Of a DNA stretch of 64,000 nucleotides, positions 6,969-56,401 are shown in pieces; within the stretch, counting starts at the first letter, position 1; every line of letters begins with the position of its first letter. The DNA comes from Clostridia bacterium. GTDB lineage: Bacteria; Bacillota; Clostridia; Oscillospirales; CAG-272. The notes under the pieces are model-generated. The model had not been told where the DNA came from and did not search any database. It saw nothing but the letters and a program-made list of their open reading frames with translations. A program made the position numbers and the translations under genes. The DNA lies in assembly GCA_017463485.1 (NCBI GenBank), contig JAFTPD010000002.1, positions 65,229 through 129,228 of the forward strand, in the 5' to 3' direction.

Positions 6969-7124
6969 ACGGGCTGTCTCACTAATGTGATCCAGCCCAC
7001 GAAATCGAACTTGACGAATGAAATTCGTCATTTTGGCGCTAAAAAAGCATAAAATTTTCTCCGAAAAGACGCCAAAAACGTTCGAGTTTCCGAAAATGAT
7101 GGATTCCTTGCCATCATTTTCGAG

Positions 7125-7150
7125 GGGGCTGTCGCATTTGCGACAGCCCC
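7125..7150. terminator. hairpin downstream of the DeoR-family gene
   Basis: GGGGCTGTCGC-attt-GCGACAGCCCC perfect stem, 3 nt from the stop at 7154. Weak U-tract. Confidence 0.45.
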
Positions 7151-7153
7151 TTA

Positions 7154-7894
7154 TCAAATGAATTTTTCTTTGTATTTCGGAAAATGCTCGGATATGTCCC
7201 GCTCGCTGATAACGTGATCCACGTTTTCGAGGGAACAAAGAGTACTCAGACACGGCTCGCCTATTTTTTGCGAGTCCAGCATCAGCACGCGCTTTTTGGA
7301 GCGGGACAGCATTGCCCGACGAATGGAATTTTCGGCTATCGCATTGTCGGTCAGAGCACCGTATTCCGTCAGCGTGCGCACCGAGAAAAAGCAAATGTCG
7401 GCGTTGAATGAGCGAATAAAATTCTCCGCATAGCTGCCAACGTAAACCAGCGTGTCGGGGACAAGCTCGCCGCCCGTGACAAAGGTCTTAATATTGGCGT
7501 TTGCAAGAATGAGCGGAGCTTTTGCGCTGTTGGTAATAACGATTATAGACTTTTTTCCGTCAAGCAAGCGTAGCAGGGCAAGGGCAGAGGAGGAACCGTC
7601 CGTCATGATGATATCGCCGTCGCGAATGAGGTCAAGACATTTCTTGCCAATAATATTTTTAGCGTCCGAATGCTCCCGCTCACGCAAGGACAGCGGCAGA
7701 TTTTCGCCAAGCTCGCTCTTATGCTCTGCGCCGCCGTGGGTGCGGATTATTTTTCCCTCTGAACTCAAGGTAGCAAGATCGCGGCGCATTGTGGGCTCGC
7801 TGACGTAAAAGGCGCGGCAAAGCTCCTCAACCGTCGCGCGCTTGTTCTGGCGCAGATATTCAAGAATTTTTGCTTCTCTTTCTTTGACTGACAT
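7154..7894 (-). CDS. DeoR/GlpR family transcriptional regulator
   Basis: N-terminal HTH (ILEYLRQNKRATVEELCRAFYVSEPTMRRDL) and a C-terminal DeoR sugar-phosphate-binding-type domain. Confidence 0.85.
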   Translation of the reverse strand: MSVKEREAKILEYLRQNKRATVEELCRAFYVSEPTMRRDLATLSSEGKIIRTHGGAEHKSELGENLPLSLREREHSDAKNIIGKKCLDLIRDGDIIMTDGSSSALALLRLLDGKKSIIVITNSAKAPLILANANIKTFVTGGELVPDTLVYVGSYAENFIRSFNADICFFSVRTLTEYGALTDNAIAENSIRRAMLSRSKKRVLMLDSQKIGEPCLSTLCSLENVDHVISERDISEHFPKYKEKFI

Positions 7895-7946
7895 TGTTGA
7901 CCTCCCGTGAGCGTATGAATGAATTTTAAGTGTTAATCTATTAAAT

Positions 7947-7998
7947 TTTGAGCGAAACGGTCAGAATATGCATAAACTCTTGACAAATCCGCTCAAAA
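7947..7998. promoter_or_regulatory. inverted repeat flanking the promoter of the Ldh_2/malic enzyme operon (candidate DeoR operator)
   Basis: TTTTGAGCG (7947-7955) and CGCTCAAAA (7990-7998) are inverted copies. TTGACA at 7980-7985 with TATAAC 17 nt downstream. Confidence 0.4.
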
Positions 7999-10380: not shown

Positions 10381-11529
10381 TTATTCAGCCGTATAAACGA
10401 CTTTTCCGTCAACGACGGTAATATGCGCCGCCGCTCCCACGGTGGTGATGGGGTCAGCCGTCCAGATGACGACATCGCCGTCTTTGCCTACCTCAAGGCT
10501 TCCCACGCGGTCAGAAATGCCGACACCGCGAGCAGGATTGATGGTAATGGCTCTCCACGCGACCTCGTAATCAAGTCCCGCATCATGAGCAAGTCCCGCG
10601 CACATAGGCAGATACTGCAAGGGAATAACGGGCGCGTCGGTAATTATGGAAATGTCAACGCCCGCCTTGTGAAGCACGTCGGGGGTAGTGAAGGACTTGT
10701 TTTTAAGCTCGATTTTTGACTTTGAGCCGAGAGAAGGACCTACGAATGCGGGATAACCCTCCCGTGCAAGCGCGTCTGCAATAAGCGCGCCGTCGGTACA
10801 GTGATCGAGTGTGAGATCAACGTCGAACTCCTTAGCTACACGAATAGCCGTGAAAATATCGTCCGCGCGGTGAGCGTGAGCCTTGAGCGGTATCTCCTTT
10901 TTGATAACGGGGATCATAGCCTCCAGCTTCATGTCAAAGGCAGGCTCTTTGCCGCTTTCCTTTGCCGCAAGGTAGTTTCGGGTCTTGAAAAGCACCTCGC
11001 GGAGAAGCGACGCGGTCGCCATACGGGTGACGGGGGACTTGCCCTTCTGACCGAAGCAGCCCTTGGGATTTTCGCCGAAAGCGCATTTCATGGCAAGGGG
11101 ATCCTTGATTATCATATCGTCCACGCGGTCACCTACAAGCTTTATCGCTACGAAGGTTCCGCCAACGACGTTTGCACTGCCGGGACCCGTGCAAGCAGAC
11201 GTAACGCCGCCCTGCACAGCAAGACCGAAGCTTTCATCCTGCGGATTGATACTGTCAATGGCGCGGAGCTGGGGAGTGATGGGCTCTATGTACTCGTTGT
11301 AGTCCATACCCTCCCAACGCATGGATTCGTTGTGAAGTCCGATATGGCAGTGCGCGTCCACGCAACCGGGGGTAACAAGGCGTCCCTCGGCGTCAATAAC
11401 TGTTGCGCCGTCAGCCGAAATATCCTTGCCTACGGCGGCAATTTTCCCGTCGTCACCAATGAGGACACAGCCCGAAGGGATATCCTCGCCGACCATGGTT
11501 TTAACGTAACCGTTTTTGATAAGCAGCAT
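10381..11529 (-). CDS. amidohydrolase family protein
   Basis: VDAHCHIGL metal-binding HxH motif. Start at Met after AAGGAGA (MLLIKNGYV). Confidence 0.8.
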   Translation of the reverse strand: MLLIKNGYVKTMVGEDIPSGCVLIGDDGKIAAVGKDISADGATVIDAEGRLVTPGCVDAHCHIGLHNESMRWEGMDYNEYIEPITPQLRAIDSINPQDESFGLAVQGGVTSACTGPGSANVVGGTFVAIKLVGDRVDDMIIKDPLAMKCAFGENPKGCFGQKGKSPVTRMATASLLREVLFKTRNYLAAKESGKEPAFDMKLEAMIPVIKKEIPLKAHAHRADDIFTAIRVAKEFDVDLTLDHCTDGALIADALAREGYPAFVGPSLGSKSKIELKNKSFTTPDVLHKAGVDISIITDAPVIPLQYLPMCAGLAHDAGLDYEVAWRAITINPARGVGISDRVGSLEVGKDGDVVIWTADPITTVGAAAHITVVDGKVVYTAE

Positions 11530-13184: not shown

Positions 13185-13835
13185 TTACAGCTTGGATTGA
13201 AAGGCCACAGCACGTCCGATAATTTTGATGCTTTCAAGCTCGTGGCCTATAAATACGAGCGGCTCGTACTTTGGGTTTTCGGGAGTCAGCACAAGCTTGG
13301 ATTGCTCGGGATAGTAGTAGACTCGCTTGAGCGTCGCCTCGTCCCCGATAATTACTGCCGCGATCTCGCCGTTGTCAACTGTTTCCGCTTGCTTGATGTA
13401 TACTATATCGCCGTCATATATTCTTGCACCCGTCATGCTGTCGCCCTTGGCTGTAAGACAGAAATCGGCATTGATGTCCGCGCCGCTGACGTATTCGCTC
13501 CAGTCTTGATCTGCAATTATAGGCATTCCGCAGGCAATGTCGCCAAGCACGGGATAGGAGGAAGTTCCTATCGTAGAAATGTTGTCAGGAATGTGGAGGG
13601 TAGGGGAGGTGGTGCGCTCCATTGCTACGTCGCCGCCCATCAGCCACGCCTCGGAGACGTCCAGCGCCTCGGCAATAAGGCACAAGGCCTTGGGCTTTGC
13701 CTCGTAGACACCGTTGGTGTATTGACTGATGCGAGCCTTTGAAAGTCCTGTCAGCCGCGACAGCTCCGCCGCCTTGATACCTCTCGACACCATTGCCGCG
13801 TTGAGTCGGTCCTTAAAGCTTCTGCTTGTTTCCAT
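13185..13835 (-). CDS. CI/LexA-like repressor (XRE HTH + S24 peptidase)
   Basis: HTH (IKAAELSRLTGLSKARISQYTNG). S24 catalytic motifs GDSM (Ser) and ATLKRV (Lys). Start at Met after AAAGGAAA. Confidence 0.88.
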   Translation of the reverse strand: METSRSFKDRLNAAMVSRGIKAAELSRLTGLSKARISQYTNGVYEAKPKALCLIAEALDVSEAWLMGGDVAMERTTSPTLHIPDNISTIGTSSYPVLGDIACGMPIIADQDWSEYVSGADINADFCLTAKGDSMTGARIYDGDIVYIKQAETVDNGEIAAVIIGDEATLKRVYYYPEQSKLVLTPENPKYEPLVFIGHELESIKIIGRAVAFQSKL

Positions 13836-13954
13836 AGTGATATTTCCTTTCAAAAGGTAAAATTTCGCATGGTAGTATGGCTTTATTATAAACCAAAGTT
13901 AAGCTTCTGTCAAGAGGTTTTGATAAAAAAGTTAAGGAAATGTCAAAATGGGGG

Positions 13955-13984
13955 TTGACAAGGGCAAGGATGGTGTGGTATACT
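13955..13984 (+). promoter_or_regulatory. early/lytic promoter of the island
   Basis: TTGACA (13955-13960), 18-nt spacer, TGgTATACT extended -10 (13976-13984). Faces away from the repressor gene. Confidence 0.6.
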
Positions 13985-13991
13985 ATCGGCA

Positions 13992-14007
13992 GTTAAGCGA
14001 ACTTAAC
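13992..14007. promoter_or_regulatory. operator palindrome O1
   Basis: GTTAAGcgaaCTTAAC, a perfect 6+4+6 palindrome immediately downstream of the -10. Confidence 0.55.
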
Positions 14008-14073
14008 TTTGACTTGCATTTAAAAAGATGCGCTCCTGTTGCAAGTCGGGAGCGTAAAATTTTTACCTATTTA

Positions 14074-14089
14074 GTTAAGCAAACTTAAT
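14074..14089. promoter_or_regulatory. operator palindrome O2
   Basis: GTTAAGcaaaCTTAAt, a near copy of O1 82 bp downstream. GTTAAG half-sites also at 13898 and 13931. Confidence 0.5.
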
Positions 14090-14168
14090 TTGAAGGAAGG
14101 CAGGGTGGGAAGAAAGGTCAAAATATGAGCTATACGATATACGTTATCAGAAGAAAGGAAGTACTAAA

Positions 14169-14444
14169 ATGCAGGAGAAAAACAATTCCGTAGGGGCGAG
14201 CGAGCCCATGCGGGCTATCGGAATGTGCCCTTATTTTCAGAGGGAGAGAGGAAACGGACTTGTGTATTGCGAATGTGCAAAATTCCGTTTTCCCGATAAG
14301 ATCTCGCGCCGTGAGATCGTTTACAGATTTTGCGCGCACCCCGAAAATTACAAGGCTTGCGTGATCAAGCAGACGATGGACCACTTCTACGAGCGCAAGT
14401 ATAATCAGATAGAAGGCGGACAGAGAGGAGTGTCCAATGGCTGA
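14169..14444 (+). CDS. hypothetical Cys-rich phage protein (91 aa)
   Basis: First ORF after the promoter. Five Cys residues (MCPYF..YCEC..FC..AC) suggest a zinc-binding fold. No family recognised. Confidence 0.55.
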   Translation: MQEKNNSVGASEPMRAIGMCPYFQRERGNGLVYCECAKFRFPDKISRREIVYRFCAHPENYKACVIKQTMDHFYERKYNQIEGGQRGVSNG

Positions 14445-14697
14445 GAGAAAACGCAAGACGGGTAGCGACTGCCTGAGCGATGTCAAAGCCTACGAGGAGC
14501 TGCTCCGCGTATACGGCGCGTGGCTTGGATATCTGTTGTCGCGTCTTGGTGAGGGCGAGCTTCGCGTTGATGTGTCCGAGATATCGAAAGGACTTGACGC
14601 CGCTTGCGTGAGCGCGTGGCGAGAGGGTGACGAATACGTCATCCGTGTGGATAAAAAGGATGTGGCTGACAATGGCGGAGAAAAAAAGGGGACTTGA
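14437..14697 (+). CDS. hypothetical phage protein (86 aa)
   Basis: ORF overlapping the neighbours by 8 nt and 26 nt. No motif recognised. Confidence 0.45.
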   Translation: MAERKRKTGSDCLSDVKAYEELLRVYGAWLGYLLSRLGEGELRVDVSEISKGLDAACVSAWREGDEYVIRVDKKDVADNGGEKKGT

Positions 14698-15058
14698 ATT
14701 TATTCCGTCGGATGTCGCCGCAGATGACGCAAGACGCAGTCGCCGCGTTGAGGATTCCATCTATAAGCGCGCACGCGGATATAAGGTAGCCGTCAAAAAG
14801 ACTTACAAGGTCAAGCGCGTAGAATACGATCCCGATACGGGTAAGAAAACGTCGGAGCGGGAGGAGCTGGCGACGGGCATTGACGAGGTACATATTCCCG
14901 CCGACGTCCGCGCAGGGGAGTATTGGCTCAAAAACCGTTCCCCCGAGCGTTGGAGTGAGCATCCCGCAGTACCCGACGCGGATGACGGTGATGATGGCGT
15001 GGGGATAATTCTGCTCCCCGACGTAGAGGCGTCTGACGGAGGAAAAAATGAAGCCTGA
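14672..15058 (+). CDS. terminase small subunit
   Basis: Position before TerL and the C-terminal motif PADVRAGEYWLKNRSPERW, typical of small terminases. Start at internal ATG (MAEKKRG). Confidence 0.7.
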   Translation: MAEKKRGLEFIPSDVAADDARRSRRVEDSIYKRARGYKVAVKKTYKVKRVEYDPDTGKKTSEREELATGIDEVHIPADVRAGEYWLKNRSPERWSEHPAVPDADDGDDGVGIILLPDVEASDGGKNEA

Positions 15059-16496
15059 CAAGGTGATCTGGTCGCCACAGCCCAAGCAGAGGATATTTAT
15101 GAGTCGGTGGGAGGACGAGGCACTGTACGGAGGTGCGGCGGGCGGAGGAAAGAGCGATTGCGCCATAGTTGAAGCCTTGCGGCAGGTAAACGTGCCGCAC
15201 TATCACGGGCTGATACTCCGCAAGACCTATCCGCAGCTCTCCGACATTATCAGCCGCTCCCACGAGCTGTACTCTCGCGCATTTCCCGAGGCAAGGTATA
15301 ACGACTCAAAGCACGTGTGGACTTTCCCAAGCGGCGCGAAGATATATTTCGGCTCGCTGCAGCACGCCTCAGACCGTTTCAATTATCAAGGCAAGAGATA
15401 CGACTTTATCGACTTTGACGAGCTGACGCAGTTTACAGCGGACGAGTATACGTACCTCTTTTCGCGAAACCGTCCAAACGGCCCCGGTACGCGGTGCTAT
15501 ATAAGGGCGCAGGCAAACCCCGGCGGTATCGGACACGGCTGGGTAAAGGCTCGGTTTATAACTCCCGCGCCTCCCATGACTACGATATGGGAGGACGTCA
15601 AGGTGCGCTTTCCTGATGGACGCGAGGAAAACCGCCGCCGTTCAAGGATCTTTGTGCCGTCCACCGTGTTTGACAATCAGAAGCTGCTGGAAAACGACCC
15701 CGAATATCTCACAAGCCTTGCGGCACTGCCCGAGGCAGAGAGAAACGCACTGCTTTACGGCAACTGGGACAGCTTTTCGGGGCAGGTCTTTACCGAGTGG
15801 CGCAACGATCCCGATCATTACCGTGACCGTGTGAACACTCACGTTATAGAGCCGTTTGCCATTCCCGAGAATTGGACGGTGTGGCGCGGATTTGACTGGG
15901 GATATACCCGCCCGTTTTCGGTGGGGTGGTACGCAGTGGACTGCGACCGACGGCTTTACCGCATCCGCGAGCTGTACGGCTGTGCGGCAGACTCAAACGG
16001 AAACGCTATCGCCAACCGCGGCGTTATGTGGACGGCTGACCGTGTGGCAAAGGAGATCCGCCGCATTGAAGCAGAGGACGTAAATCTGCGCGGCAGACAT
16101 ATTCACGGAATATGCGATCCAGCGGTGTTTGCCAGAAACGGCGGCGAGAGCATTGGCGAGATAATGGAACGCTCCGGCGTTTACTTCGACAAGGCTGACA
16201 ATACCCGAATCGCGGGCAAAAATCAGATACACAACCGCCTTGCTTTTGACGAATACGGCGTGCCTATGCTGTACGTCTTTTCGACCTGCAAGCACTTTAT
16301 CCGCACCGTACCCGAGCTTGTATACAGTCAGACCGACGTGGAGGATATCGACACCGACGGCGAGGATCACATCTATGACGAATTGAGATACATGTGCATG
16401 GAAAACCCCGTGGCGGCGCGAGAGGATAAAAGAAAGGAAAGTCTGTGTGAGCCGCCGCAATATATGCCGTATCTCGTGCGGCACGAATATTGTTGA
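15048..16496 (+). CDS. terminase large subunit
   Basis: Walker A (YGGAAGGGKSD), Walker B-like (FIDFDELTQF), C-terminal nuclease region (DTDGEDHIYDELRY). Confidence 0.9.
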   Translation: MKPDKVIWSPQPKQRIFMSRWEDEALYGGAAGGGKSDCAIVEALRQVNVPHYHGLILRKTYPQLSDIISRSHELYSRAFPEARYNDSKHVWTFPSGAKIYFGSLQHASDRFNYQGKRYDFIDFDELTQFTADEYTYLFSRNRPNGPGTRCYIRAQANPGGIGHGWVKARFITPAPPMTTIWEDVKVRFPDGREENRRRSRIFVPSTVFDNQKLLENDPEYLTSLAALPEAERNALLYGNWDSFSGQVFTEWRNDPDHYRDRVNTHVIEPFAIPENWTVWRGFDWGYTRPFSVGWYAVDCDRRLYRIRELYGCAADSNGNAIANRGVMWTADRVAKEIRRIEAEDVNLRGRHIHGICDPAVFARNGGESIGEIMERSGVYFDKADNTRIAGKNQIHNRLAFDEYGVPMLYVFSTCKHFIRTVPELVYSQTDVEDIDTDGEDHIYDELRYMCMENPVAAREDKRKESLCEPPQYMPYLVRHEYC

Positions 16497-16529
16497 CAGA
16501 AAAAAGAATTCGGAGGCAGGGTGGGAATT

Positions 16530-18146
16530 ATGAGGAATGGAGAAAATATGAGAAAAACAGAAACAGAAGGCTATGAAAATACCTGTGCCATAGGCAAGGT
16601 AGAGCTTCGGGAGGCGCTGGAGCTTTTGCAATCCTACAAGGAGGCAAAGCGGCGTACCGACGAGCGTATATGGGATGAGATGCAGTGGTGGCAGAAGCGC
16701 CACGACATCAAAGCTGCGGCAAGTGTCAGCGGGGTGCGTCCCGTGTCGGCGTGGCTGTTCAACAGCGTTTGCAACAAGCATGCGGATATGTGCGACAATA
16801 TCCCCGTCGCAAAGGCACTGCCCCGTGAAATGGGGGACGAGATGGCGGCGGATATGCTGTCCAAGATACTCCCCGTGATCTGCGAGAGATGCGGATTTGA
16901 AAAGACCTATTCGGACAATGCGTGGTACAAGCTGCGCCACGGAATGAGCGCGTGGGGCGTGTTCTGGAATTCACGGCTTGAAAATGGGCTTGGCGATATT
17001 GATATATGTCGTATGGACGTTATGGATATCTTCTGGGACGTGAGTGTTGCCGACATTCAGGACAGCCGCGGACTTTTTATCATCTCTGCCGATACTGCGG
17101 AGGGTGTGAGGAGCGCATATCCTCATTTCAAGGGCGAGTATAGGGACGGAGAGCGCGGCGACAGGGTAGAGGTCATTGACTGGTACTACAAGCGCCGCAT
17201 GCCCGACGGACGAAGTCTGCTTCACTATGCGAAAATATGCGGTGATGAGCTGCTTTACTCGTCCGAAAACGACCCTATGTTTGCAGATCGCGGCTGGTAC
17301 GAGCACGGAATGTACCCCGTGGTGCTGGACGTGCTTTTCCCCGACGTGAGTGGTAGCACGGGCTACGGATTCCTTGCTGTGGGCAGAAATCCGCAGGGCT
17401 ATATCGACGAGCTGGACGGCAATATTCTTGAATATGCCAACACCGTCAGCCGCGCAAGATACTGGGCAAAGCGCTCTCTTGGCATCAACGAGCGCGATTT
17501 CCTCAATCCCGATAAGCGTATTATCGAGGTGGAGGGAGATATCGACGACGAAAAGCTCCGTCAGATAAAGGTAGAGCCTATCGACTCAACGCTGACGTCC
17601 ATCCGCACTATGAAGATAGACGAGCTGAAGGAAACCACGGGCAACCGCGACGTGTCGCAGGGAAGCACCTCGGGAGGCGTTACTGCGGCATCTGCTATCG
17701 TTGCCCTGCAGGAGTCGGGCAATAAAGGAAGCCGCGACGTGATAATGGGAACTTACCGCGCCTACGTTTCGGTGATCACTCTCGTTATCGAGCTTATCCG
17801 CGAGTTTTACGACGGAGAGAGATGCTTCCGCATCTGCGGCGACGGCAGTAAGGCTAACCCCTATCAGTATCTGAACTATACCAACCGCGATCTCAAAACG
17901 GTGACGGTGGGCGTGGGTGCTGACGGCGAGGCGTTGTATTACCGTCCCGTATTTGATATCGAGGTCAAGGCAGAGCGCCGCGACCCTCTGACCCAAAGCG
18001 CGAGAAATCAGCTCATACTTCAGCTCTACGAGGCGGGAATGTTCGATCCCGAAAACAGCGCCGCCGCGTCGGTAGCCCTTGAATGTATGGATTTTGACGG
18101 AATCGACGCCGCCCGCGCGATGGTGCGTACTGGGGTACAGGTATGA
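16530..18146 (+). CDS. portal protein
   Basis: About 540 aa, directly after TerL, with a size and composition typical of portals. Exact start uncertain (GTG 16521, ATG 16530 or ATG 16548). Confidence 0.75.
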   Translation: MRNGENMRKTETEGYENTCAIGKVELREALELLQSYKEAKRRTDERIWDEMQWWQKRHDIKAAASVSGVRPVSAWLFNSVCNKHADMCDNIPVAKALPREMGDEMAADMLSKILPVICERCGFEKTYSDNAWYKLRHGMSAWGVFWNSRLENGLGDIDICRMDVMDIFWDVSVADIQDSRGLFIISADTAEGVRSAYPHFKGEYRDGERGDRVEVIDWYYKRRMPDGRSLLHYAKICGDELLYSSENDPMFADRGWYEHGMYPVVLDVLFPDVSGSTGYGFLAVGRNPQGYIDELDGNILEYANTVSRARYWAKRSLGINERDFLNPDKRIIEVEGDIDDEKLRQIKVEPIDSTLTSIRTMKIDELKETTGNRDVSQGSTSGGVTAASAIVALQESGNKGSRDVIMGTYRAYVSVITLVIELIREFYDGERCFRICGDGSKANPYQYLNYTNRDLKTVTVGVGADGEALYYRPVFDIEVKAERRDPLTQSARNQLILQLYEAGMFDPENSAAASVALECMDFDGIDAARAMVRTGVQV

Positions 18147-18448
18147 TAGACGTAAGCTATGCGGTAAACGCCGAGAGCGGAAAATGCCAAATTGAAGCGT
18201 GCGGTCACGCAGGCTGTGCCGAGCGCGGAGGAGACGTTATCTGCGCGGGAGTGTCCGCGCTCCTGTACGGATTTCTGTACTACCTCTCCGAAAAGCACGG
18301 CTCAAGTCTTGTGTGGCACGAGAGCGACGACAGCCTTTTTATGTGCTTCCCGTCGGAGAGCGCGGAGGCACTTGAGGTGATAACGGCATCTCTCAGACTT
18401 ATGTCGGACACCTATCCCGAATACGTTAGCTTGCAAGAAGGAAGGTAA
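18143..18448 (+). CDS. Prp-like (DUF464) cysteine protease, phage-encoded
   Basis: GHAGCAERGGDVICAGVSAL matches the Prp His/Cys catalytic dyad motif. Compare host Prp at 55679 (GHTGYGEEGGDVLCAAISAM). ATGA overlap with the portal gene. Confidence 0.8.
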   Translation: MIDVSYAVNAESGKCQIEACGHAGCAERGGDVICAGVSALLYGFLYYLSEKHGSSLVWHESDDSLFMCFPSESAEALEVITASLRLMSDTYPEYVSLQEGR

Positions 18449-18451
18449 AAT

Positions 18452-18928
18452 ATGGAACAAATCACAGAAACCGAAATCATAACGGAAAACGAACAGACAG
18501 AGCCGACCGCAGAGTCGACACTTGAGGTAACGGAGACGGAGGAGGTCATCAGTCAGCCGACAGAGCCGCAGACGCAGGGTATTGATATGGAGGAATTTAC
18601 CCGTTCACTCCTTGATGCTTACCCCGACGCAGACGTCGCTGACGAAAGACTGCTCGCCTACGCCGAAGGTCGCGAGCGACTCAGTGCCGTTGACCTTTAC
18701 CGAGCTTTGAATTTTGACAGCCTTGTGGCAAAGGCGGCAAACGCCGCCGCGCTGGAAGCCGAATCAAAGCTTATCGCACATATCCGTCTTTGCGGAATTC
18801 GCCCCGCAGAGAACGGAACAGACAGACAAAAGGGAGGAAAGAAAACCCCTCCCGTGGCAAGGCTCAGCCGCGCCGAGCGAGCAAAAATTGCCGCAAGAGC
18901 AGGTCGCGGAGAGCGCATTGAATTTTAA
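18452..18928 (+). CDS. putative scaffolding protein
   Basis: Highly acidic N-terminus, Ala-rich helical middle, basic C-terminus. Sits between the protease and the capsid gene. Confidence 0.6.
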   Translation: MEQITETEIITENEQTEPTAESTLEVTETEEVISQPTEPQTQGIDMEEFTRSLLDAYPDADVADERLLAYAEGRERLSAVDLYRALNFDSLVAKAANAAALEAESKLIAHIRLCGIRPAENGTDRQKGGKKTPPVARLSRAERAKIAARAGRGERIEF

Positions 18929-18946
18929 AAAAGAAAGGACAAAAAA

Positions 18947-20221
18947 ATGAACAACACAAACCTTTATATCGGCAAGGACTACATTCAGCATTTTGCTTCG
19001 GGTGAGCGTGTAATGGGAACTGCGGGCGTGTCCAATAACAACGCCGCTACCGTAACCCCTTACGAGGGCGAAGGACTTTCTGCCGAGATGAGAACCTATT
19101 ACAGCGACTATCTTATCGATAACGCAGAGCCTTATCTGGTGCACGATCTGTTCGCACAGAAGCACCGCATCCCCACGGGCGGCGGTAAGACTATCTCCTT
19201 CCGCAAGTACGATCCGCTGCCCAAGCGCACCTCTCCCATTGTAGAGGGCGTTACCCCTGACGGTCAGGATTTCCACGTTAGCGTAGTGGAGGCAACCGTT
19301 TCCCAGTACGGCGGATATATCGAGCTTACCGACCTACTTCTCATGACGGCGGTTGATAACAACCTCTGCATGGCAACCAAGCTGCTCGGTGCGCAGGCAG
19401 GACGTACCCTTGACACCATCTCGCGCGAGGTGCTTTCAGGCGGTACAAACGTTCAGTACGGCGAGAACGCCGTATCTGCGCGTCATCTGCTGGTGGGAGG
19501 CAAGGAGAGCGGCAACCATTACCTTACCGTTGACTGTATCCGCCGCGCGGTAAGATTCCTCAAGAGTCAGAATGCTGAGAAGATCGACGGCTCTTACGTG
19601 GCAATCATCCACCCCGACTGCACCTACGACCTTATGAACGATCCCAACTGGAAAACGCCCAATCAGTACGCCGATAGCAAGCGTATCTTCGAGGGCGAAA
19701 TCGGCAAGATCGAGGGCGTGCGCTTTATCGAGTCCAGCGAAGCCAAGATCTTCCACGCAGAGGATCTTTATGAAGGTCAGCGCACAGTCCCTGTTACCAA
19801 CGGCACAGCAGACGGAGGTCTTTATCTGCAGGGCAACACATTGCCTGACAGATGGATTATCGTTAACGGCAAACGCGTATATTACAGCGCGTCAAAGTGC
19901 TACACCGATTCCACCAAACAGAATACCGTCGATATGAGTGGAGCCAAAGTAAACGATATCGTCTATCCTGGTGAAGCAGGTGCAGAGGGCCGCGATGTAT
20001 ATTCCACCCTTATCATCGCGGATAACGCATACGGTACAACCGAAATTTCGGGGGGCGGACTTGAGCATATCGTAAAGCAACTCGGTAGCGCAGGAACGTC
20101 CGACCCGCTCAATCAGAGAGCAACCGTCGGTTGGAAGGCGTCCAAGGTCACTACTCGTCTTGTAGAGGCGTTTATGGTGAGAATCGAGACCACCTCCACC
20201 TTCGAATCGGGCAACAACTGA
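18947..20221 (+). CDS. major capsid protein (N4-gp56-like family)
   Basis: 424 aa. ISFRKYDPLP..EGVTPDG..VSQYGGYIELTDLL..LLGAQAGRTLD matches my memory of the N4-gp56 capsid family. N-terminal IQHF-AS motif. Confidence 0.8.
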   Translation: MNNTNLYIGKDYIQHFASGERVMGTAGVSNNNAATVTPYEGEGLSAEMRTYYSDYLIDNAEPYLVHDLFAQKHRIPTGGGKTISFRKYDPLPKRTSPIVEGVTPDGQDFHVSVVEATVSQYGGYIELTDLLLMTAVDNNLCMATKLLGAQAGRTLDTISREVLSGGTNVQYGENAVSARHLLVGGKESGNHYLTVDCIRRAVRFLKSQNAEKIDGSYVAIIHPDCTYDLMNDPNWKTPNQYADSKRIFEGEIGKIEGVRFIESSEAKIFHAEDLYEGQRTVPVTNGTADGGLYLQGNTLPDRWIIVNGKRVYYSASKCYTDSTKQNTVDMSGAKVNDIVYPGEAGAEGRDVYSTLIIADNAYGTTEISGGGLEHIVKQLGSAGTSDPLNQRATVGWKASKVTTRLVEAFMVRIETTSTFESGNN

Positions 20222-20277
20222 TAATTTATAAACACCCCGCCCTCGGGCGGGGGAGAGATAAAGAAAGGAAAAAGAAT

Positions 20278-20562
20278 ATGAGTACGAATACCGAAAATAA
20301 AAACAAGACCGTTTCCACTCCCGAGGACTACCTTGAGGAGCTGGTTTCCATAAAGCTTTTCCGCGACGGCGGACGTTATCGCGACAACGTGTACGTTGCT
20401 GTCAACGGACAGAACTGCATCATCAAGCGCGGTGAATGGGTAAAGGTAAAGCGCAAGTTTGCCATGGTGCTTGACGCCTCCGAAATTCAGGATATGAAGA
20501 CCGCGCAGATGATCGAAGCCGAGGAGAAAAAGTTCCAAACTGCCGAATCCAAGCTCGCCTGA
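20278..20562 (+). CDS. hypothetical phage head-associated protein (94 aa)
   Basis: ATG after AAAGGAAAAAG, inside listed ORF 20131..20562. No family recognised. Confidence 0.55.
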   Translation: MSTNTENKNKTVSTPEDYLEELVSIKLFRDGGRYRDNVYVAVNGQNCIIKRGEWVKVKRKFAMVLDASEIQDMKTAQMIEAEEKKFQTAESKLA

Positions 20563-20580: not shown

Positions 20581-20919
20581 ATGACTATCGGTAAATGTAT
20601 CGGCATAGCCGAAACCATAGCGCCCAACAAGATCGACAGAGAGCTGAAGCTCCGTTGGCTCAGCGAGCTTGAGGGCAAGATAGCCGTAGAGCTTTTCGAC
20701 GCTATGCCGGAGGAGCTGAACGAGTACAGCGCCGAGTGTGAGGACGGGGTGCAGCTTTACGTCCCGTTTCCGTTTGACCAGATATACTGGATGTACCTCG
20801 TGGCAATGCTTGACCTTGCCAATGGGGACAACGCAAGATACGGAAATTCCGCAGGCGCGTTCAATTCCGCCTTTGAGAGCTACGCCAAATGGGTATTGCG
20901 CAACGGAGTGACGAGGTAA
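20581..20919 (+). CDS. hypothetical phage protein (112 aa), possible head-tail connector
   Basis: Position after the capsid gene. No motif recognised. Confidence 0.5.
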   Translation: MTIGKCIGIAETIAPNKIDRELKLRWLSELEGKIAVELFDAMPEELNEYSAECEDGVQLYVPFPFDQIYWMYLVAMLDLANGDNARYGNSAGAFNSAFESYAKWVLRNGVTR

Positions 20920-21091: not shown

Positions 21092-22666
21092 ATGTCAGGT
21101 AAAACAGCGGTATCCCTACCTTTGGGAATAGCCAAAGACTCAAACGTCAAAAAAAGGACGCAGACAAAATTCGGCGGACTTTGCCGCGAGAGAATGGCGA
21201 GCGGTGAGGACATCAGCTATATGCTCAATACGACGTGCTGTGATCATCCGAGAATATCCGCGCGAGAGAGGAGAAGGCTGTCCTCTGCGAGTGCCGTGGC
21301 GGGAAGCACGTCGTATACCGTCGCAGTGTCGGATAAGGTATACGTAGTCGAGGGCGACAAGCTCTACATTTCTGAAAACGGTGCACGTACCGAATGCTGT
21401 ACTCTGTCATCCGAATCGGATAAAAAGATAATCTGCTACGGTAACGACCTTGTGATCCTGCCCGATTATATCCATTATCAGTCGCCCTTTGGATATACTA
21501 AAAGTATGCGTATTTCAACAGACGTTATCAAAGCAACAATAAGCGGCAACTCGCTTGTTGCAGAGTCCGTCGATTTTGAGGATATTGGCTTCAGAATGGG
21601 CGACGGTGTAACAGTTACCTCAGTGGCAAGCACGCTGTCCAGTCATGTGTTCACGGTAAACTCTACCGTTTATTACGTAGACGGAAACACCTTGCTTATA
21701 GACGGAGTTTTTCCGAGCGACGGGGAATATGCGATTCGCGTAAGACGTGACATACCCTCACTTACCCACGCCGTATGCTGGGGCGAGCGAATGTACGGCA
21801 CGTCGGGAAGCAACGTCAACATTTCGGAAGAAGGAAATATCTATAACTGGAAAGGGAAAAGGGGACTTGACAGCGACCCCGTGACTATGCCGTCAGTCTC
21901 CGTCGGCAGCTTTACCGCTTGCGCCGAATGGAACGGTTATATTGTCTTTTTTAAGGAAGGCTCGATATGCAAGCTGCTTGGCAATAAGGCGTCAAGCTAC
22001 GTGTTGTCAGAGGTAACGGCGCCGGGTATTCCCGAGGGTGGACATAAAACGCTTGTTTCTCTCGGCGGCGCGCTCTACTACTGCGGCACAATGGGAGTTT
22101 ATAAGTACGACGGTACGCATCCCAAGCGGATAGATCAGGGCGCGCTTCCCGACGGCTTGAAGGCGACGGCAGCCGCCACTGACGGAGAAAGATATTATCT
22201 TGCGGCAAACGGTAAAGTGTACGTTTACGACCCCGTGCGACAACTATGGAGCGCAGAATCGGGCGCGGCTATCGTCAGTATGGCAGGCAGAGCGGGCGAG
22301 GTATATATGTTGACGTCGGGCGGATTGCTGTTTGCGTCGGGCGATACGGCAGAGGGCGGACTTGAGGACGCGACCGACGCATGGCTGTCCTTTGGATACG
22401 ACGACGGAGGCGCGGCAGAAAAGAAATCCCTCCTATCATTGAGTTTAACCGTCCGATTGGGAGAGGGAGCTGACCTCGAGGTGCTCGCAGAATTCGACGA
22501 GGACGGCGAGCAGGTGCTTGTCGGAAACAGCAGAGGACGTGGCGCGTGGGAAAATCTCACCTATATGTGTCCGCCCAATATCTGCGGTGGATTCCGAATA
22601 CATCTTCATGCCCGCGGTAGCTTTACGCTCGCGTCGCTGACGCGCAATTACCGCATCATAAGCTGA
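21092..22666 (+). CDS. 524-aa beta-rich phage structural protein of unknown role
   Basis: GAGGAAAGGAGA RBS. Recurrent G-x-hydrophobic-Y motifs (KVYVVEGDKLYI, GALYYCGTMGVYKYDG, GERYYLAANGKVYVYD, GEVYMLTSGGLLFA) suggest a propeller or beta-sandwich. Confidence 0.6.
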   Translation: MSGKTAVSLPLGIAKDSNVKKRTQTKFGGLCRERMASGEDISYMLNTTCCDHPRISARERRRLSSASAVAGSTSYTVAVSDKVYVVEGDKLYISENGARTECCTLSSESDKKIICYGNDLVILPDYIHYQSPFGYTKSMRISTDVIKATISGNSLVAESVDFEDIGFRMGDGVTVTSVASTLSSHVFTVNSTVYYVDGNTLLIDGVFPSDGEYAIRVRRDIPSLTHAVCWGERMYGTSGSNVNISEEGNIYNWKGKRGLDSDPVTMPSVSVGSFTACAEWNGYIVFFKEGSICKLLGNKASSYVLSEVTAPGIPEGGHKTLVSLGGALYYCGTMGVYKYDGTHPKRIDQGALPDGLKATAAATDGERYYLAANGKVYVYDPVRQLWSAESGAAIVSMAGRAGEVYMLTSGGLLFASGDTAEGGLEDATDAWLSFGYDDGGAAEKKSLLSLSLTVRLGEGADLEVLAEFDEDGEQVLVGNSRGRGAWENLTYMCPPNICGGFRIHLHARGSFTLASLTRNYRIIS

Positions 22667-22688: not shown

Positions 22689-23009
22689 ATGAATTCGCAC
22701 GACGGACCGAGAGGGTACAATCATCATTCGATCGACAGAGAATATTCCGCCGAGCTTTGCGACGAGCGACACGACAGGCTGGATTTTGATATCCGCCATG
22801 TGGAGGAAAAGCTTGAAAAGCTGGAGATCTGCACCGTAAAGCTGACGGATATGATCGAGCGGCACGATAAAATGATAGACGCCCAGCAGGAAAAGATAAG
22901 CACCCTTGAAAAGCATCCGGGGGCACAGCTTCAAAAGATACTGTGGTATGCCATCAGCGCCGTGGCAGGCGCTCTGGCGGTTGCCCTTACGGATCATATC
23001 GCGCTTTGA
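22689..23009 (+). CDS. XhlA-like membrane protein (lysis-associated)
   Basis: N-terminal coiled coil (HVEEKLEKLEICTVKLTDMIERHDKMIDAQQEKISTLEK) and a single C-terminal TM (ILWYAISAVAGALAVAL), as in XhlA-family proteins. Confidence 0.6.
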   Translation: MNSHDGPRGYNHHSIDREYSAELCDERHDRLDFDIRHVEEKLEKLEICTVKLTDMIERHDKMIDAQQEKISTLEKHPGAQLQKILWYAISAVAGALAVALTDHIAL

Positions 23010-55018: not shown

Positions 55019-55342
55019 GTTTACTTGTAACAAAGAGATGAGCAAAAATTTTAATTTGACTCAGCCCCTTTGCAAAATTTTAAAGTTTTTATTGCTTGGT
55101 TACTTCTGTCGATACAGAAGTAACATGAAAAATAATTACAATATTTGTTTTACTTTCTGCTTACACGATAACAGACACATAAATAATCAAATTTTTTAAA
55201 AAAGTCGAAAAAAACTATTGACAAGGGAAGATTTGTATGTTATAATAATTTGCCGCTTAAAAAGGGCTTTTTTAAGTGCGTCAAAAATCTTGTGTTTTTG
55301 CGCCGCCCCGTTAGCGAGTCTTAAAGAAACGAGGTGCTTTTC

Positions 55343-55651
55343 ATGTTTGCTGTAATTACTACAGGCGGAAAGCAGTACAAGGTCATTGAGCAGGACATCA
55401 TCTATGTCGAGAAGCTGAATGTTGAAGAGGGCGCAGAGGTTACGTTTGACGTTGTTGCGCTGTCCACCGACGCAGGCTTCAAGGCAGGAACCCCCACAGT
55501 TGCCGGTGCAAAGGTTACCGGTAAGGTGCTTCTCAACGGTAAGGGCAAGAAGGTCTACGTTATGAAGTACAAGTCCAAGAAGAACGAAAAGAAGAAGATG
55601 GGCCACAGACAGCCCTTCACCAAGGTACAGATCACCGCTATCGAGGGCTGA
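55343..55651 (+). CDS. rplU: 50S ribosomal protein L21
   Basis: MFAVITTGGKQYKV. ATG follows GAGGTG. Confidence 0.93.
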   Translation: MFAVITTGGKQYKVIEQDIIYVEKLNVEEGAEVTFDVVALSTDAGFKAGTPTVAGAKVTGKVLLNGKGKKVYVMKYKSKKNEKKKMGHRQPFTKVQITAIEG

Positions 55652-55678: not shown

Positions 55679-56041
55679 ATGACAAGGATCACTTTTTTTC
55701 GAAGCGACGGAATTTTCTACGGGTTTGAGGAAAAGGGACATACGGGATACGGCGAGGAGGGCGGCGACGTTCTTTGTGCGGCGATCTCAGCTATGACTAT
55801 GTTTCTCATAAATACCGTCGAGGTCGCCTATGCATCTCGCATTGAGTATGAGATAGACGACAACACAACAACGGTGCGAGTCAAGTGCAAATCGGCACTC
55901 CCCGAATTTGAGGAGGACGATATGAAGCGCTACGCCGTGTCGGGAATCTTTCTGGGATATTACCAGCAGCTTACCGATATGCTCGAGGAGTATGAGGATT
56001 ATCTCGACGTCAAGGTCGTAAACCGCGACTACGACGAATAA
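55679..56041 (+). CDS. prp: ribosomal-processing cysteine protease Prp
   Basis: GHTGYGEEGGDVLCAAISA dyad motif. Conserved position between rplU and rpmA. Confidence 0.88.
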   Translation: MTRITFFRSDGIFYGFEEKGHTGYGEEGGDVLCAAISAMTMFLINTVEVAYASRIEYEIDDNTTTVRVKCKSALPEFEEDDMKRYAVSGIFLGYYQQLTDMLEEYEDYLDVKVVNRDYDE

Positions 56042-56119: not shown

Positions 56120-56401
56120 ATGTTAAAGCTCAGTTTGCAGTTTTTTGCTCACAAAAAGGGTGTAGGTTCTACTAAGAACGGCCGTGACAGCGAGTCCAAG
56201 CGTTTGGGCGTTAAGAAGGCTGACGGTCAGGCAGTAGTAGCCGGCAACATTATCGTACGTCAGAGAGGAACGGCTATCCGCCCCGGCAACAACGTTGGCA
56301 TGGGTAAGGATCACACTCTGTTCGCTCTTATCGACGGTAAGGTAAAGTTTGAGCATGCAACGAGAACACAGAAGAGAGTAAGCGTTTACGCTGCTGAGTA
56401 A
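56120..56401 (+). CDS. rpmA: 50S ribosomal protein L27 (with Prp-cleaved N-terminal extension)
   Basis: [32 protein letters not shown]. The nine-residue propeptide is typical of Firmicutes. Confidence 0.93.

Follow-up and report, generated by a model that had tools for sequence, protein, structure and literature searches.

The DNA analysed here is a 64,000-nucleotide stretch from a Clostridia bacterium (CAG-272; assembly GCA_017463485.1, contig JAFTPD010000002.1, positions 65,229 to 129,228), referred to below as the window, and the subject of this report is a compact phage-like operon that searches against Pfam, PHROGs and TIGRFAM located at 13.2-23.1 kb on the plus strand, with a divergent repressor. 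In this operon a 101-amino-acid open reading frame (ORF; 18143-18448, +) with the catalytic dyad of the cysteine protease Prp lies between the gene of a P22-type portal protein (16521-18146, +; P22_portal, phrog_156) and that of a 158-residue scaffolding protein (18452-18928, +; C-terminal match to phrog_13908), ahead of the gene of a 424-residue major capsid protein of the N4-gp56 family (18947-20221, +), which was identified by TIGR04387 (273.1 bits against a cut-off of 60) and phrog_1357 (E = 1.8e-82). An initial annotation of the same DNA had described the operon as an island with its own Prp-type protease; the ORF, its position and its dyad, as well as the second Prp gene at 55679, the gene of ribosomal protein L27 at 56120 and the capsid N-terminus on which that description relied, were all found as quoted, with sequence strings and coordinates in agreement. 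What needs refinement is the label of a generic island, as the operon resembles a gene transfer agent (GTA) and is collinear with operon I of FpGTA, the podovirus-like GTA of Faecalibacterium prausnitzii (Nat Commun 2026; PMC12946183).

The element Prp, the host Prp and the capsid leader

The context expected around the dyad of Prp proteins is GH...D(I/V)(I/V)CA(G/A)(V/A)S, with H22 and C34 in the numbering of Staphylococcus aureus Prp. The 101-residue ORF contains EACGHAGCAERGGDVICAGVSAL, and the codons of the catalytic histidine and of the nucleophilic cysteine are at 18206-18208 (His22, +) and 18242-18244 (Cys34, +). The protein matched PF04327 (Peptidase_Prp) with 46.6 bits against a cut-off of 27, over positions 1-89 of the 90 in the profile, and phrog_4478 ('peptidase'), while its best sequence match in the PDB was S. 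aureus Prp (4peo/7kld), with H22 and C34 in register over residues 1-46 of 4peo. Both Prp paralogues of the window were aligned, as had been proposed, with characterised Prps: in an alignment (A2) of the element Prp, the host Prp, 15 element-borne (phage) Prps and the orf13 protease of phage Cp-1, the invariant columns were M1, G21, H22, C34 and S38, and in a larger alignment (A3) of 103 Prp homologues H22, C34 and S38 were invariant too. The catalytic His and Cys were invariant in all element-borne Prps examined.

The model of the element Prp built with AlphaFold2 (AF2) on A3 reached a predicted local distance difference test score (pLDDT) of 92.2 and a predicted template modelling score (pTM) of 0.84. 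A Foldseek search of the PDB with this model showed that all 11 matches with E <= 0.001 are Prp structures, with template modelling scores relative to the query (TMq) of 0.68-0.82, the top one (TMq 0.82) being 7jvs, S. aureus Prp with a bound substrate peptide; the next match, at E = 0.058 and TMq 0.36, was insignificant. In addition, a PDB search with a profile of the clade of the element Prp matched no chains other than those of Prp. The Prp fold named in the initial annotation is thus borne out by the model, and by Pfam match, active-site residues and fold the 101-residue protein is a member of the Prp (MEROPS C108) cysteine protease family with an intact dyad. Its predicted activity is that of an endopeptidase cutting after the Phe of an L27-type leader.

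The position of the gene is that of a head gene. Its ATG overlaps the stop codon of the portal gene (ATGA, 18143-18146), which is a sign of translational coupling, and the place between portal and scaffold genes is the usual slot of a prohead protease. In two rearranged relatives (L150 and L153) the Prp gene is still the immediate neighbour behind the portal gene, and these two genes together are the conserved unit. The ratios of nonsynonymous to synonymous substitutions (dN/dS) against the closest relative, L005, were 0.047 for the portal gene, 0.195 for Prp, 0.067 for the capsid gene and 0.289 for the scaffold gene. No ORF of the element matched the conventional prohead-protease families (S78, U35, S14) in Pfam or PHROGs, in agreement with the earlier suggestion that the element carries its own Prp in place of a protease of the HK97 type, and by its role the element Prp would be a head-maturation protease outside the S78, U35 and S14 families.

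The host copy lies in the ribosomal context, in which the genes of L21 (rplU; 55334-55651, +; TIGR00061, 107.6 bits), a 120-residue Prp (55679-56041, +; PF04327, 67.5 bits against the cut-off of 27) and L27 (56120-56401, +; PF01016 match from residue 10) follow each other. This second Prp paralogue of the window contains GHTGYGEEGGDVLCAAISAM, and the L27 N-terminus, MLKLSLQFF/AHKK (a slash outside brackets marks the scissile bond), has a 9-residue propeptide at 56120-56146. The two Prps share 42% identity over 48 residues near the active site and 21% overall, and since their likeness is confined to the surroundings of the active site, the element Prp is no recent duplicate of the host gene. 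In NCBI, where its accession is MBQ9161734.1, it bears the name 'ribosomal-processing cysteine protease Prp'; as the gene lies outside the rplU-rpmA context, which is occupied by the ribosomal copy at 55679-56041, this is a family name rather than a tested function. The NCBIfam equivalog model of ribosomal Prp gave the element Prp 34 bits against a cut-off of 135, and the host copy fell below that cut-off too (33.5 bits), so that little can be read from this score.

The N-terminus of the capsid protein is MNNTNLYIGKDYIQHFASGERV. The TIGR04387 match starts at residue 43, so that residues 1-42 extend past the core of the family, and within this extension the leader junction reads MNNTNLYIGKDYIQHF/ASG, with the motif D-Y-I-Q-H-F/A-S around F16/A17. 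The predicted propeptide (residues 1-16, MNNTNLYIGKDYIQHF) is encoded at 18947-18994 (+) and the recognition motif I13-Q14-H15-F16/A17 at 18983-18997 (+), with the predicted scissile bond between bases 18994 and 18995. For a motif scan the window was translated in six frames (63,604 amino acids) and searched with a tight motif, [LIVMFY]Q[HLFRM]F[AG], and with a looser version of it. The tight motif occurs exactly twice, at capsid residues 13-17 and at L27 residues 6-10, both N-terminal, and with two sites in the whole translation the capsid motif is beyond chance. The looser motif had no site in any other ORF of the element (scaffold, portal and small ORFs), which agrees with what had been noticed initially.

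The capsid family is large, with at least 7992 homologues at E <= 1e-20. Among the 120 closest (71-94% identity), the pattern [FY]LQ[HRA]F/A(S/A)G is kept in 119, while the leader ahead of it is free in sequence and about 6-30 residues long, and a variable leader in front of a kept motif is the expected look of a recognition site that ends a disposable leader. The profile of 115 distinct capsid sites has D/N at P5, L at P4 (101 of 115; also I), Q/R/H at P3, L/R/H at P2, F at P1 and A/G/D at P1', and as judged from these sites it is the consensus of the L27 leader. The cut after F16 that had been suggested for the window therefore coincides with a family-wide motif behind a variable leader; that the bond is actually cut is a prediction. 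Public gene models hide this substrate, in that the NCBI capsid model (MBQ9161736.1, 377 residues) is 47 residues shorter and starts at M48, which removes both leader and motif.

A further feature of the capsid protein is an insertion of about 75 residues (residues ~270-345, at ~19755-19980), absent from the capsids of L002, L003 and Bacillus phage Page. The AF2 model of the capsid protein, from a shallow alignment in which all sequences were at least 73% identical, had an overall pLDDT of 41, and the insertion alone was modelled confidently, as a beta-rich segment with pLDDT 76-92. It may be a surface or decoration domain.

Pairing of Prp genes with leader-bearing proteins

To place the window in a wider set, 160 related loci were taken from species-representative genomes (Oscillospiraceae and other Clostridia metagenome-assembled genomes) and from IMG/VR and scanned with the Prp profile, and the 138 loci with at least 2.6 kb of DNA upstream of the capsid core were regarded as informative. 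A Prp gene upstream of the capsid gene on the same strand was found in 132 of the 138, and the N-terminal motif [LIVM]xxF/[AGDSE] in 129 of these 132, the remaining three having near-variants. The other six comprised one with Prp elsewhere in the locus, three with the motif and no Prp in the locus, and two with neither. One of these last two is Bacillus phage Page, whose capsid protein is also without the N-terminal extension. The survey of N4-gp56-type capsid genes for adjacent DUF464 genes that the initial annotation had called for was thus positive, with Prp and motif together in 129 of 138 loci. The same gene set is retained in hundreds of species, with relatives in at least 341 stretches of species-representative genomes.

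The scaffold shows how closely protease and substrate can be joined. The window scaffold has no motif, and in at least 23 relatives the scaffold carries an L27-like leader. In two human-gut contigs, L002 (4526-5683) and L003 (4778-5788), Prp and scaffold are one reading frame with MMDLQLF/A at the junction; L002 has a second internal site, FMLQLF/AEGE, and in another relative, L284, the fusion gene is at 7001-7954. The fusion proteins of 317 and 362 residues belong to clusters of 4660 and 4990 members, and the exact 317-residue sequence is present on 282 contigs, the longest of 315 kb, so that the fusion is no assembly artefact. The element Prp of the window aligns to residues 1-107 of the 317-residue fusion and its scaffold to residues 240-317. 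In the window itself the two genes are in the same reading frame, split by TAA and one codon (18446-18454). We do not claim stop-codon read-through between them, because fission of an ancestral fusion, or a precursor of the fusion, explains the shared frame more simply.

For an independent sample, IMG/VR was searched at the DNA level with a degenerate pattern that encodes the active-site stretch DIVCA[AG]VSA of Prp, and the capsid played no part in this choice. The scan gave 116 new loci, and the Prp profile matched in 115. Downstream DNA of at least 2.5 kb was available for 67 loci, and 58 of them had one to three same-strand ORFs with an N-terminal L27-like leader, 17 of these being of the N4-gp56 type. 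The density of leader sites was 9.28 per 10,000 amino acids in the 4.5 kb downstream of Prp against 0.44 elsewhere on the same contigs (odds ratio 21, Fisher p = 3e-74). These numbers bear on the suspicion that the capsid N-terminus resembles L27 by coincidence, for which it can be said that the motif has five residues and was noticed in a single sequence. With two sites in 63,604 residues, both N-terminal, with the motif kept by 119 of the 120 close homologues as well as across the family at large, and with the 21-fold enrichment downstream of Prp genes in an independent sample, such a coincidence is hardly credible, and we regard it as refuted by the conservation data.

The leader-bearing proteins sampled were head scaffolding proteins, major head proteins of three families, and major tail proteins. 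In four siphophage-type IMG/VR contigs with their own Prp (L224, L238, L193 and L258), the major tail protein (phrog_238) carries the leader, for example MSMNRYKLQLF/AEAVSG, and from such sequences the tail-tube protein seems to be a third class of substrate. Cultured phages have the same arrangement: in Enterococcus phage phiFL3A, gp45 is annotated 'peptidase, DUF464', the scaffold has the leader LLNLQFF/AEK and the head protein MNLQIF/AAK, and the same trio of Prp gene, scaffold leader and head leader was found in Brochothrix phage BL3 and in Latilactobacillus TMW 1.1365 P3, in the latter of which the Prp gene is annotated as hypothetical with a truncated start.

Within a genome the residue at P1' is the same throughout (F/A, F/G or F/D) in 43 of 48 loci, where shuffling would give 31.8; genomes with F/D at all sites occur, and A and D are mixed in L110 and L114. 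The L27 sites considered from Table 2 of PMC9405229 have Ala at P1'. A P1' that is uniform within a genome, with F/D and F/G unlike the Ala of these L27 sites, argues that the element-borne enzyme sets the specificity in such genomes.

Through these comparisons, we consider it probable that an active element-made Prp (His22/Cys34) is the head-maturation protease of this operon and cuts the capsid protein at F16/A17. Family membership, fold, catalytic residues, purifying selection, conservation of the motif and its co-occurrence with the gene are established in silico; that cleavage takes place, that it falls at this bond and that the element enzyme rather than the host enzyme performs it are all inferred from these. 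The element appears to be under a LexA/cI-type repressor. On derepression, portal and Prp would be translated together, and Prp would remove the 16-residue leader after F16, before or during procapsid assembly, leaving a mature capsid protein that starts with ASGERV, while the site-free scaffold of the window would presumably be released intact, as in P22-like systems. In relatives, Prp would free itself from the scaffold and trim scaffold and tail-tube leaders.

Several points weigh against this interpretation. The mutual information between Prp columns and the capsid P1' was only a phylogeny-like signal, from which no specificity residue emerged; two loci, L133 (capsid) and L132 (scaffold), keep F/A leaders with portal and scaffold genes adjacent and no Prp between them; and the proteomics table of the FpGTA study (PMC12946183) holds no peptide-level data. 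The capsid site is also close to that of host L27 (IQHF/AS and LQFF/AH agree at P3, P1 and P1'), and QHF/AS is identical from P3 to P2' to the capsid site LQHF/AS of phage 80alpha in Table 1 of PMC9405229, which is cut by the S. aureus host Prp, so that the host enzyme could suffice. In S. aureus the host Prp (C108, YsxB/DUF464) processes L27 as well as the 80alpha capsid and scaffold proteins, as described in PMC9405229 and PMC5744158, and the host Prp of the window (55679-56041) might trim the capsid in the same way, the element Prp being redundant or serving another protein or host L27. This would also account for the Prp-less loci with leaders. It sits poorly with a Prp gene that is under purifying selection and has head genes for neighbours in 132 of the 138 informative loci, with sites exactly at the junction of Prp-scaffold fusions, and with whole-genome F/D and F/G classes unlike the L27 sites tabulated in PMC9405229; a job of the element Prp on another element protein would lack a target, since no other protein of the element bears the motif. 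We therefore think that trimming by the host enzyme is unlikely.

The preferred reading, cleavage by the element Prp, has also to be weighed against the purpose of the leader. Capsid cleavage by Prp is dispensable for the viability of 80alpha (PMC5744158), so that a leader need not exist for cleavage, and leader and Prp might be mainly an assembly or chaperone tag, with Prp binding leaders and cleavage incidental and not needed for particles. The 80alpha mutants whose capsid protein is uncleavable or already cleaved beforehand are viable, the scaffold leader is needed for assembly, and the authors suggest a shared chaperone role (PMC5744158); moreover, the FpGTA protein annotated as Prp co-purifies with particles (PMC12946183), and leaders are found on three unrelated self-assembling proteins, namely scaffold, capsid and tail tube. 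The invariance of His and Cys in the element-borne Prps examined argues that catalysis is selected for, and a chaperone role is compatible with cleavage and alters only its purpose. As a substitute for functional cleavage, we hold this explanation to be slightly more doubtful than that of the host enzyme.

In general, the surveys point tentatively to a wider picture, to which we give somewhat less than an even chance, in which a large share of Firmicutes phages, and gut GTAs, would use a portable 'tag-and-trim' module made up of Prp and the L27-type leader: a single protease encoded after the portal would process scaffold, capsid and tail tube, sometimes from a self-releasing polyprotein, and in F/A, F/G and F/D classes.

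Operon layout and relationship to FpGTA

At its edge the operon is bordered by the divergent gene of a LexA/cI-type repressor with HTH (HTH_3) and Peptidase_S24 domains in Pfam (13185-13853, -), followed by two small ORFs, a small terminase candidate (14627-15058, +; phrog_309, phrog_23444) and the large terminase (15048-16496, +; Terminase_6N, phrog_979; 62% identity to the large terminase, TerL, of L284), which precedes the portal gene. Behind the capsid gene are a conserved small head or neck gene of 94 residues (20278-20562, +; phrog_15239, BLASTP match to g70 of L284), whose start codon (ATG at 20278) and ribosome-binding site were read from the sequence, a conserved gene of 112 residues (20581-20919, +; phrog_12105), homologous to gene g127 of the FpGTA-type operon, and a 524-residue tail-nozzle homologue (21092-22666, +) with 30% identity to a 623-residue protein of L284, which by gene order we infer to be the counterpart of RCH50846.1 ('Tail nozzle' in Supplementary Data 2 of PMC12946183). 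The operon ends with an ORF of 106 residues (22689-23009), in which a coiled coil makes up the N-terminal part and the C-terminus is hydrophobic; this ORF is present again in 18 related genome loci and takes the place of a TolA-like protein of 421 residues in Faecalibacterium.

The S24 repressor accompanies the operon in 44 related genome loci as well as in L045, which suggests control of particle production triggered by RecA and the SOS response; the FpGTA paper (PMC12946183) does not mention a repressor. A 26-nucleotide purine-rich repeat, GG.G.G.GA.A.AAAGAAAGGAAA, stands at 16415-16440 and 20246-20271, ahead of the portal gene and of the gene at 20278, and suggests a common ribosome-binding context for the two. 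After the capsid stop codon there is a GC-rich hairpin, CCCGCCCTCGGGCGGG (20222-20256), which resembles the terminator behind the capsid gene of phage Page. The relative L045 has a Barstar (barnase inhibitor) gene (11053-11511) and a Mbeg1-like lipase gene (13474-14550) among its structural genes, perhaps as cargo or with an accessory role.

Host genes lie on both sides of the operon, with VTC and DUF4956 at one end and BipA at the other. No integrase was found among the ORFs of the element or the two flanking genes, no replication or lysis genes were seen in the element, no flanking att-type repeats or tRNA genes were found around it, and there was no anomaly of GC content, which is host-like. 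Such a list could be that of a decaying prophage remnant, with Prp gene and motif left over in it and no longer functional. All ORFs are intact, however, the dN/dS values run from 0.05 to 0.29 over portal, Prp, scaffold and capsid genes, the gene set is kept in hundreds of species, and the homologous FpGTA I makes DNA-filled particles (PMC12946183), and a mere remnant is thus very improbable.

FpGTA operon I is 10.5 kb long and has ten ORFs (TerS, TerL, portal, scaffolding, capsid and hypotheticals), and its particles, shown only for Faecalibacterium, are ~40 nm in size and contain ~8.5-9 kb of DNA, packaged as random host fragments of ~8-9 kb (PMC12946183). The proteomics of that study lists the portal protein RCH50851.1, the N4-gp56 capsid protein RCH50849.1 and the tail nozzle RCH50846.1, and in particles purified on caesium chloride the protein RCH50850.1, which is annotated as 'ribosomal-processing cysteine protease Prp' with the function 'Unknown', was detected with 14 peptides, 52.6% coverage and 103 spectra. 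In FpGTA I the gene of this Prp has that of the portal on one side and that of the N4-gp56 capsid on the other, and the words protease, cysteine and L27 are absent from the main text of the paper (PMC12946183). Contigs of the L284 type with the 317-residue fusion have a ten-ORF operon in the order of FpGTA I and a fixed host context, and L284 was equated with FpGTA I by gene order, sizes and annotations, not by a match of sequence to accession. Eight genes of the window match L284 in the same order, with identities of 62% for TerL, 39% for the portal, 48-52% for the capsid and 30% for the nozzle, and given this collinearity the most fitting description of the window element is that of an FpGTA-type operon from a different Clostridia lineage.

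The window operon and FpGTA I share an order over about 10 kb of TerS, TerL, portal, Prp(-scaffold), N4-gp56 capsid, two small genes and nozzle, and both are chromosomal, with no integrase, replication genes or att sites. They differ in that the Faecalibacterium type makes Prp and scaffold as a single polypeptide, whose junction bears a leader motif, and has a capsid leader ending NIQLF/AE, whereas the window has two genes and IQHF/AS, and in that the window has the divergent S24 repressor and lacks the FpGTA-type TolA-like last gene of 421 residues. Expression and presence in particles are documented by the published proteomics for the Faecalibacterium homologue only (PMC12946183).

Implications and comparison with known systems

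In the literature we found no description of the pairing of an element-borne Prp with L27-type leaders, and prior mention in the founding papers (Wall et al. 2015, 2017; Martin et al. 1998) is possible; within the same limit, none was found of a Prp-scaffold polyprotein with a junction site, of the extension to the tail tube, of the P1' classes or of a role in GTAs. The role proposed here would give a concrete function to a gene that is listed as 'Unknown' in the 2026 GTA paper (PMC12946183) and named as a ribosomal enzyme by annotation pipelines. Prp-dependent trimming has been known from Cp-1 and from one staphylococcal phage, which relies on the host enzyme; the analysis further suggests that it is common among phages and GTAs of Gram-positive bacteria, many of which have their own enzyme. 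If the tag-and-trim module is real, the ribosomal pair of L27 propeptide and Prp would share its evolutionary history with a viral module, and elements of the F/A class such as this one, once induced, could cross-react with host L27 maturation. The finding also bears on why the L27 of Firmicutes has a cleavable extension. Prp is pursued as an antibiotic target, and inhibitors could thus block phage and GTA maturation too, while element-borne Prps might offer a bypass for L27 processing under such inhibition.

The nearest system by enzyme is that of 80alpha and its host, which shares with the window the enzyme family, the dyad, the fold and a short leader ending in LQ(F/H)F/A(S/H). The difference is that 80alpha has no protease of its own and uses the essential host enzyme (rplU-prp-rpmA), whereas the window has a second, divergent copy in the head cluster, and that both scaffold and capsid are cut in 80alpha, whereas the window has a site on the capsid only.

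A self-encoded head protease of the Prp family has precedent in Streptococcus phage Cp-1 and in the 'peptidase' genes of phiFL3A and BL3. The orf13 product of Cp-1 is a phage-encoded C108 protease that takes 48 residues off the major head protein and whose part in maturation was demonstrated by experiment (as cited in PMC12445089 and PMC9261936), and reviews of Prp from 2022, including PMC9405229, name it as the sole other characterised member of the clan. Like the element Prp, it has about 100 residues, is phage-encoded, acts on the N-terminus of the head protein and has G21, H22, C34 and S38. If 48 residues are removed, its site as read from the genome would be ARINH/ATVP, which is not L27-like, and its propeptide would have 48 residues against 16 in the window. 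Cp-1 has a phi29-like genome in which the protease gene is distant from those of portal and capsid, in contrast to the window gene in its head cluster, and Cp-1 is a lytic phage with protein-primed replication, whereas the window has a chromosomal GTA-like operon.

The cultured temperate siphophages with DUF464 genes (phiFL3A gp45, BL3 gp6, Lactococcus PLgT-1, TP712, Oenococcus Krappator and TMW 1.1365 P3; PHROG 4478) resemble the window in having Prp directly after the portal gene and an L27-like leader on the major head protein. They are unlike it in that they are SPP1-like, with a MuF minor head protein and unrelated capsids, and have both scaffold and capsid tagged. Their genes are annotated merely as 'peptidase', 'ribosomal protein' or 'hypothetical', and our literature search found no paper that links them to the leaders.

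In comparison to the conventional prohead proteases (HK97 gp4/S78, U35 and ClpP-like S14), the element Prp occupies the same slot between portal and scaffold or capsid genes and, as predicted, would serve the same removal of a capsid N-terminus, and the Prp-scaffold fusion of the Faecalibacterium type parallels the protease-scaffold fusions of lambda C/Nu3 and P2 gpO. It differs from them in its His/Cys dyad and in its small alpha/beta fold, that of TM1457 and S. aureus Prp, where they are serine proteases with the unrelated herpesvirus-assemblin or ClpP folds, and in the segment that would be removed, which is a 16-residue tag in the window and a delta domain in the conventional systems.

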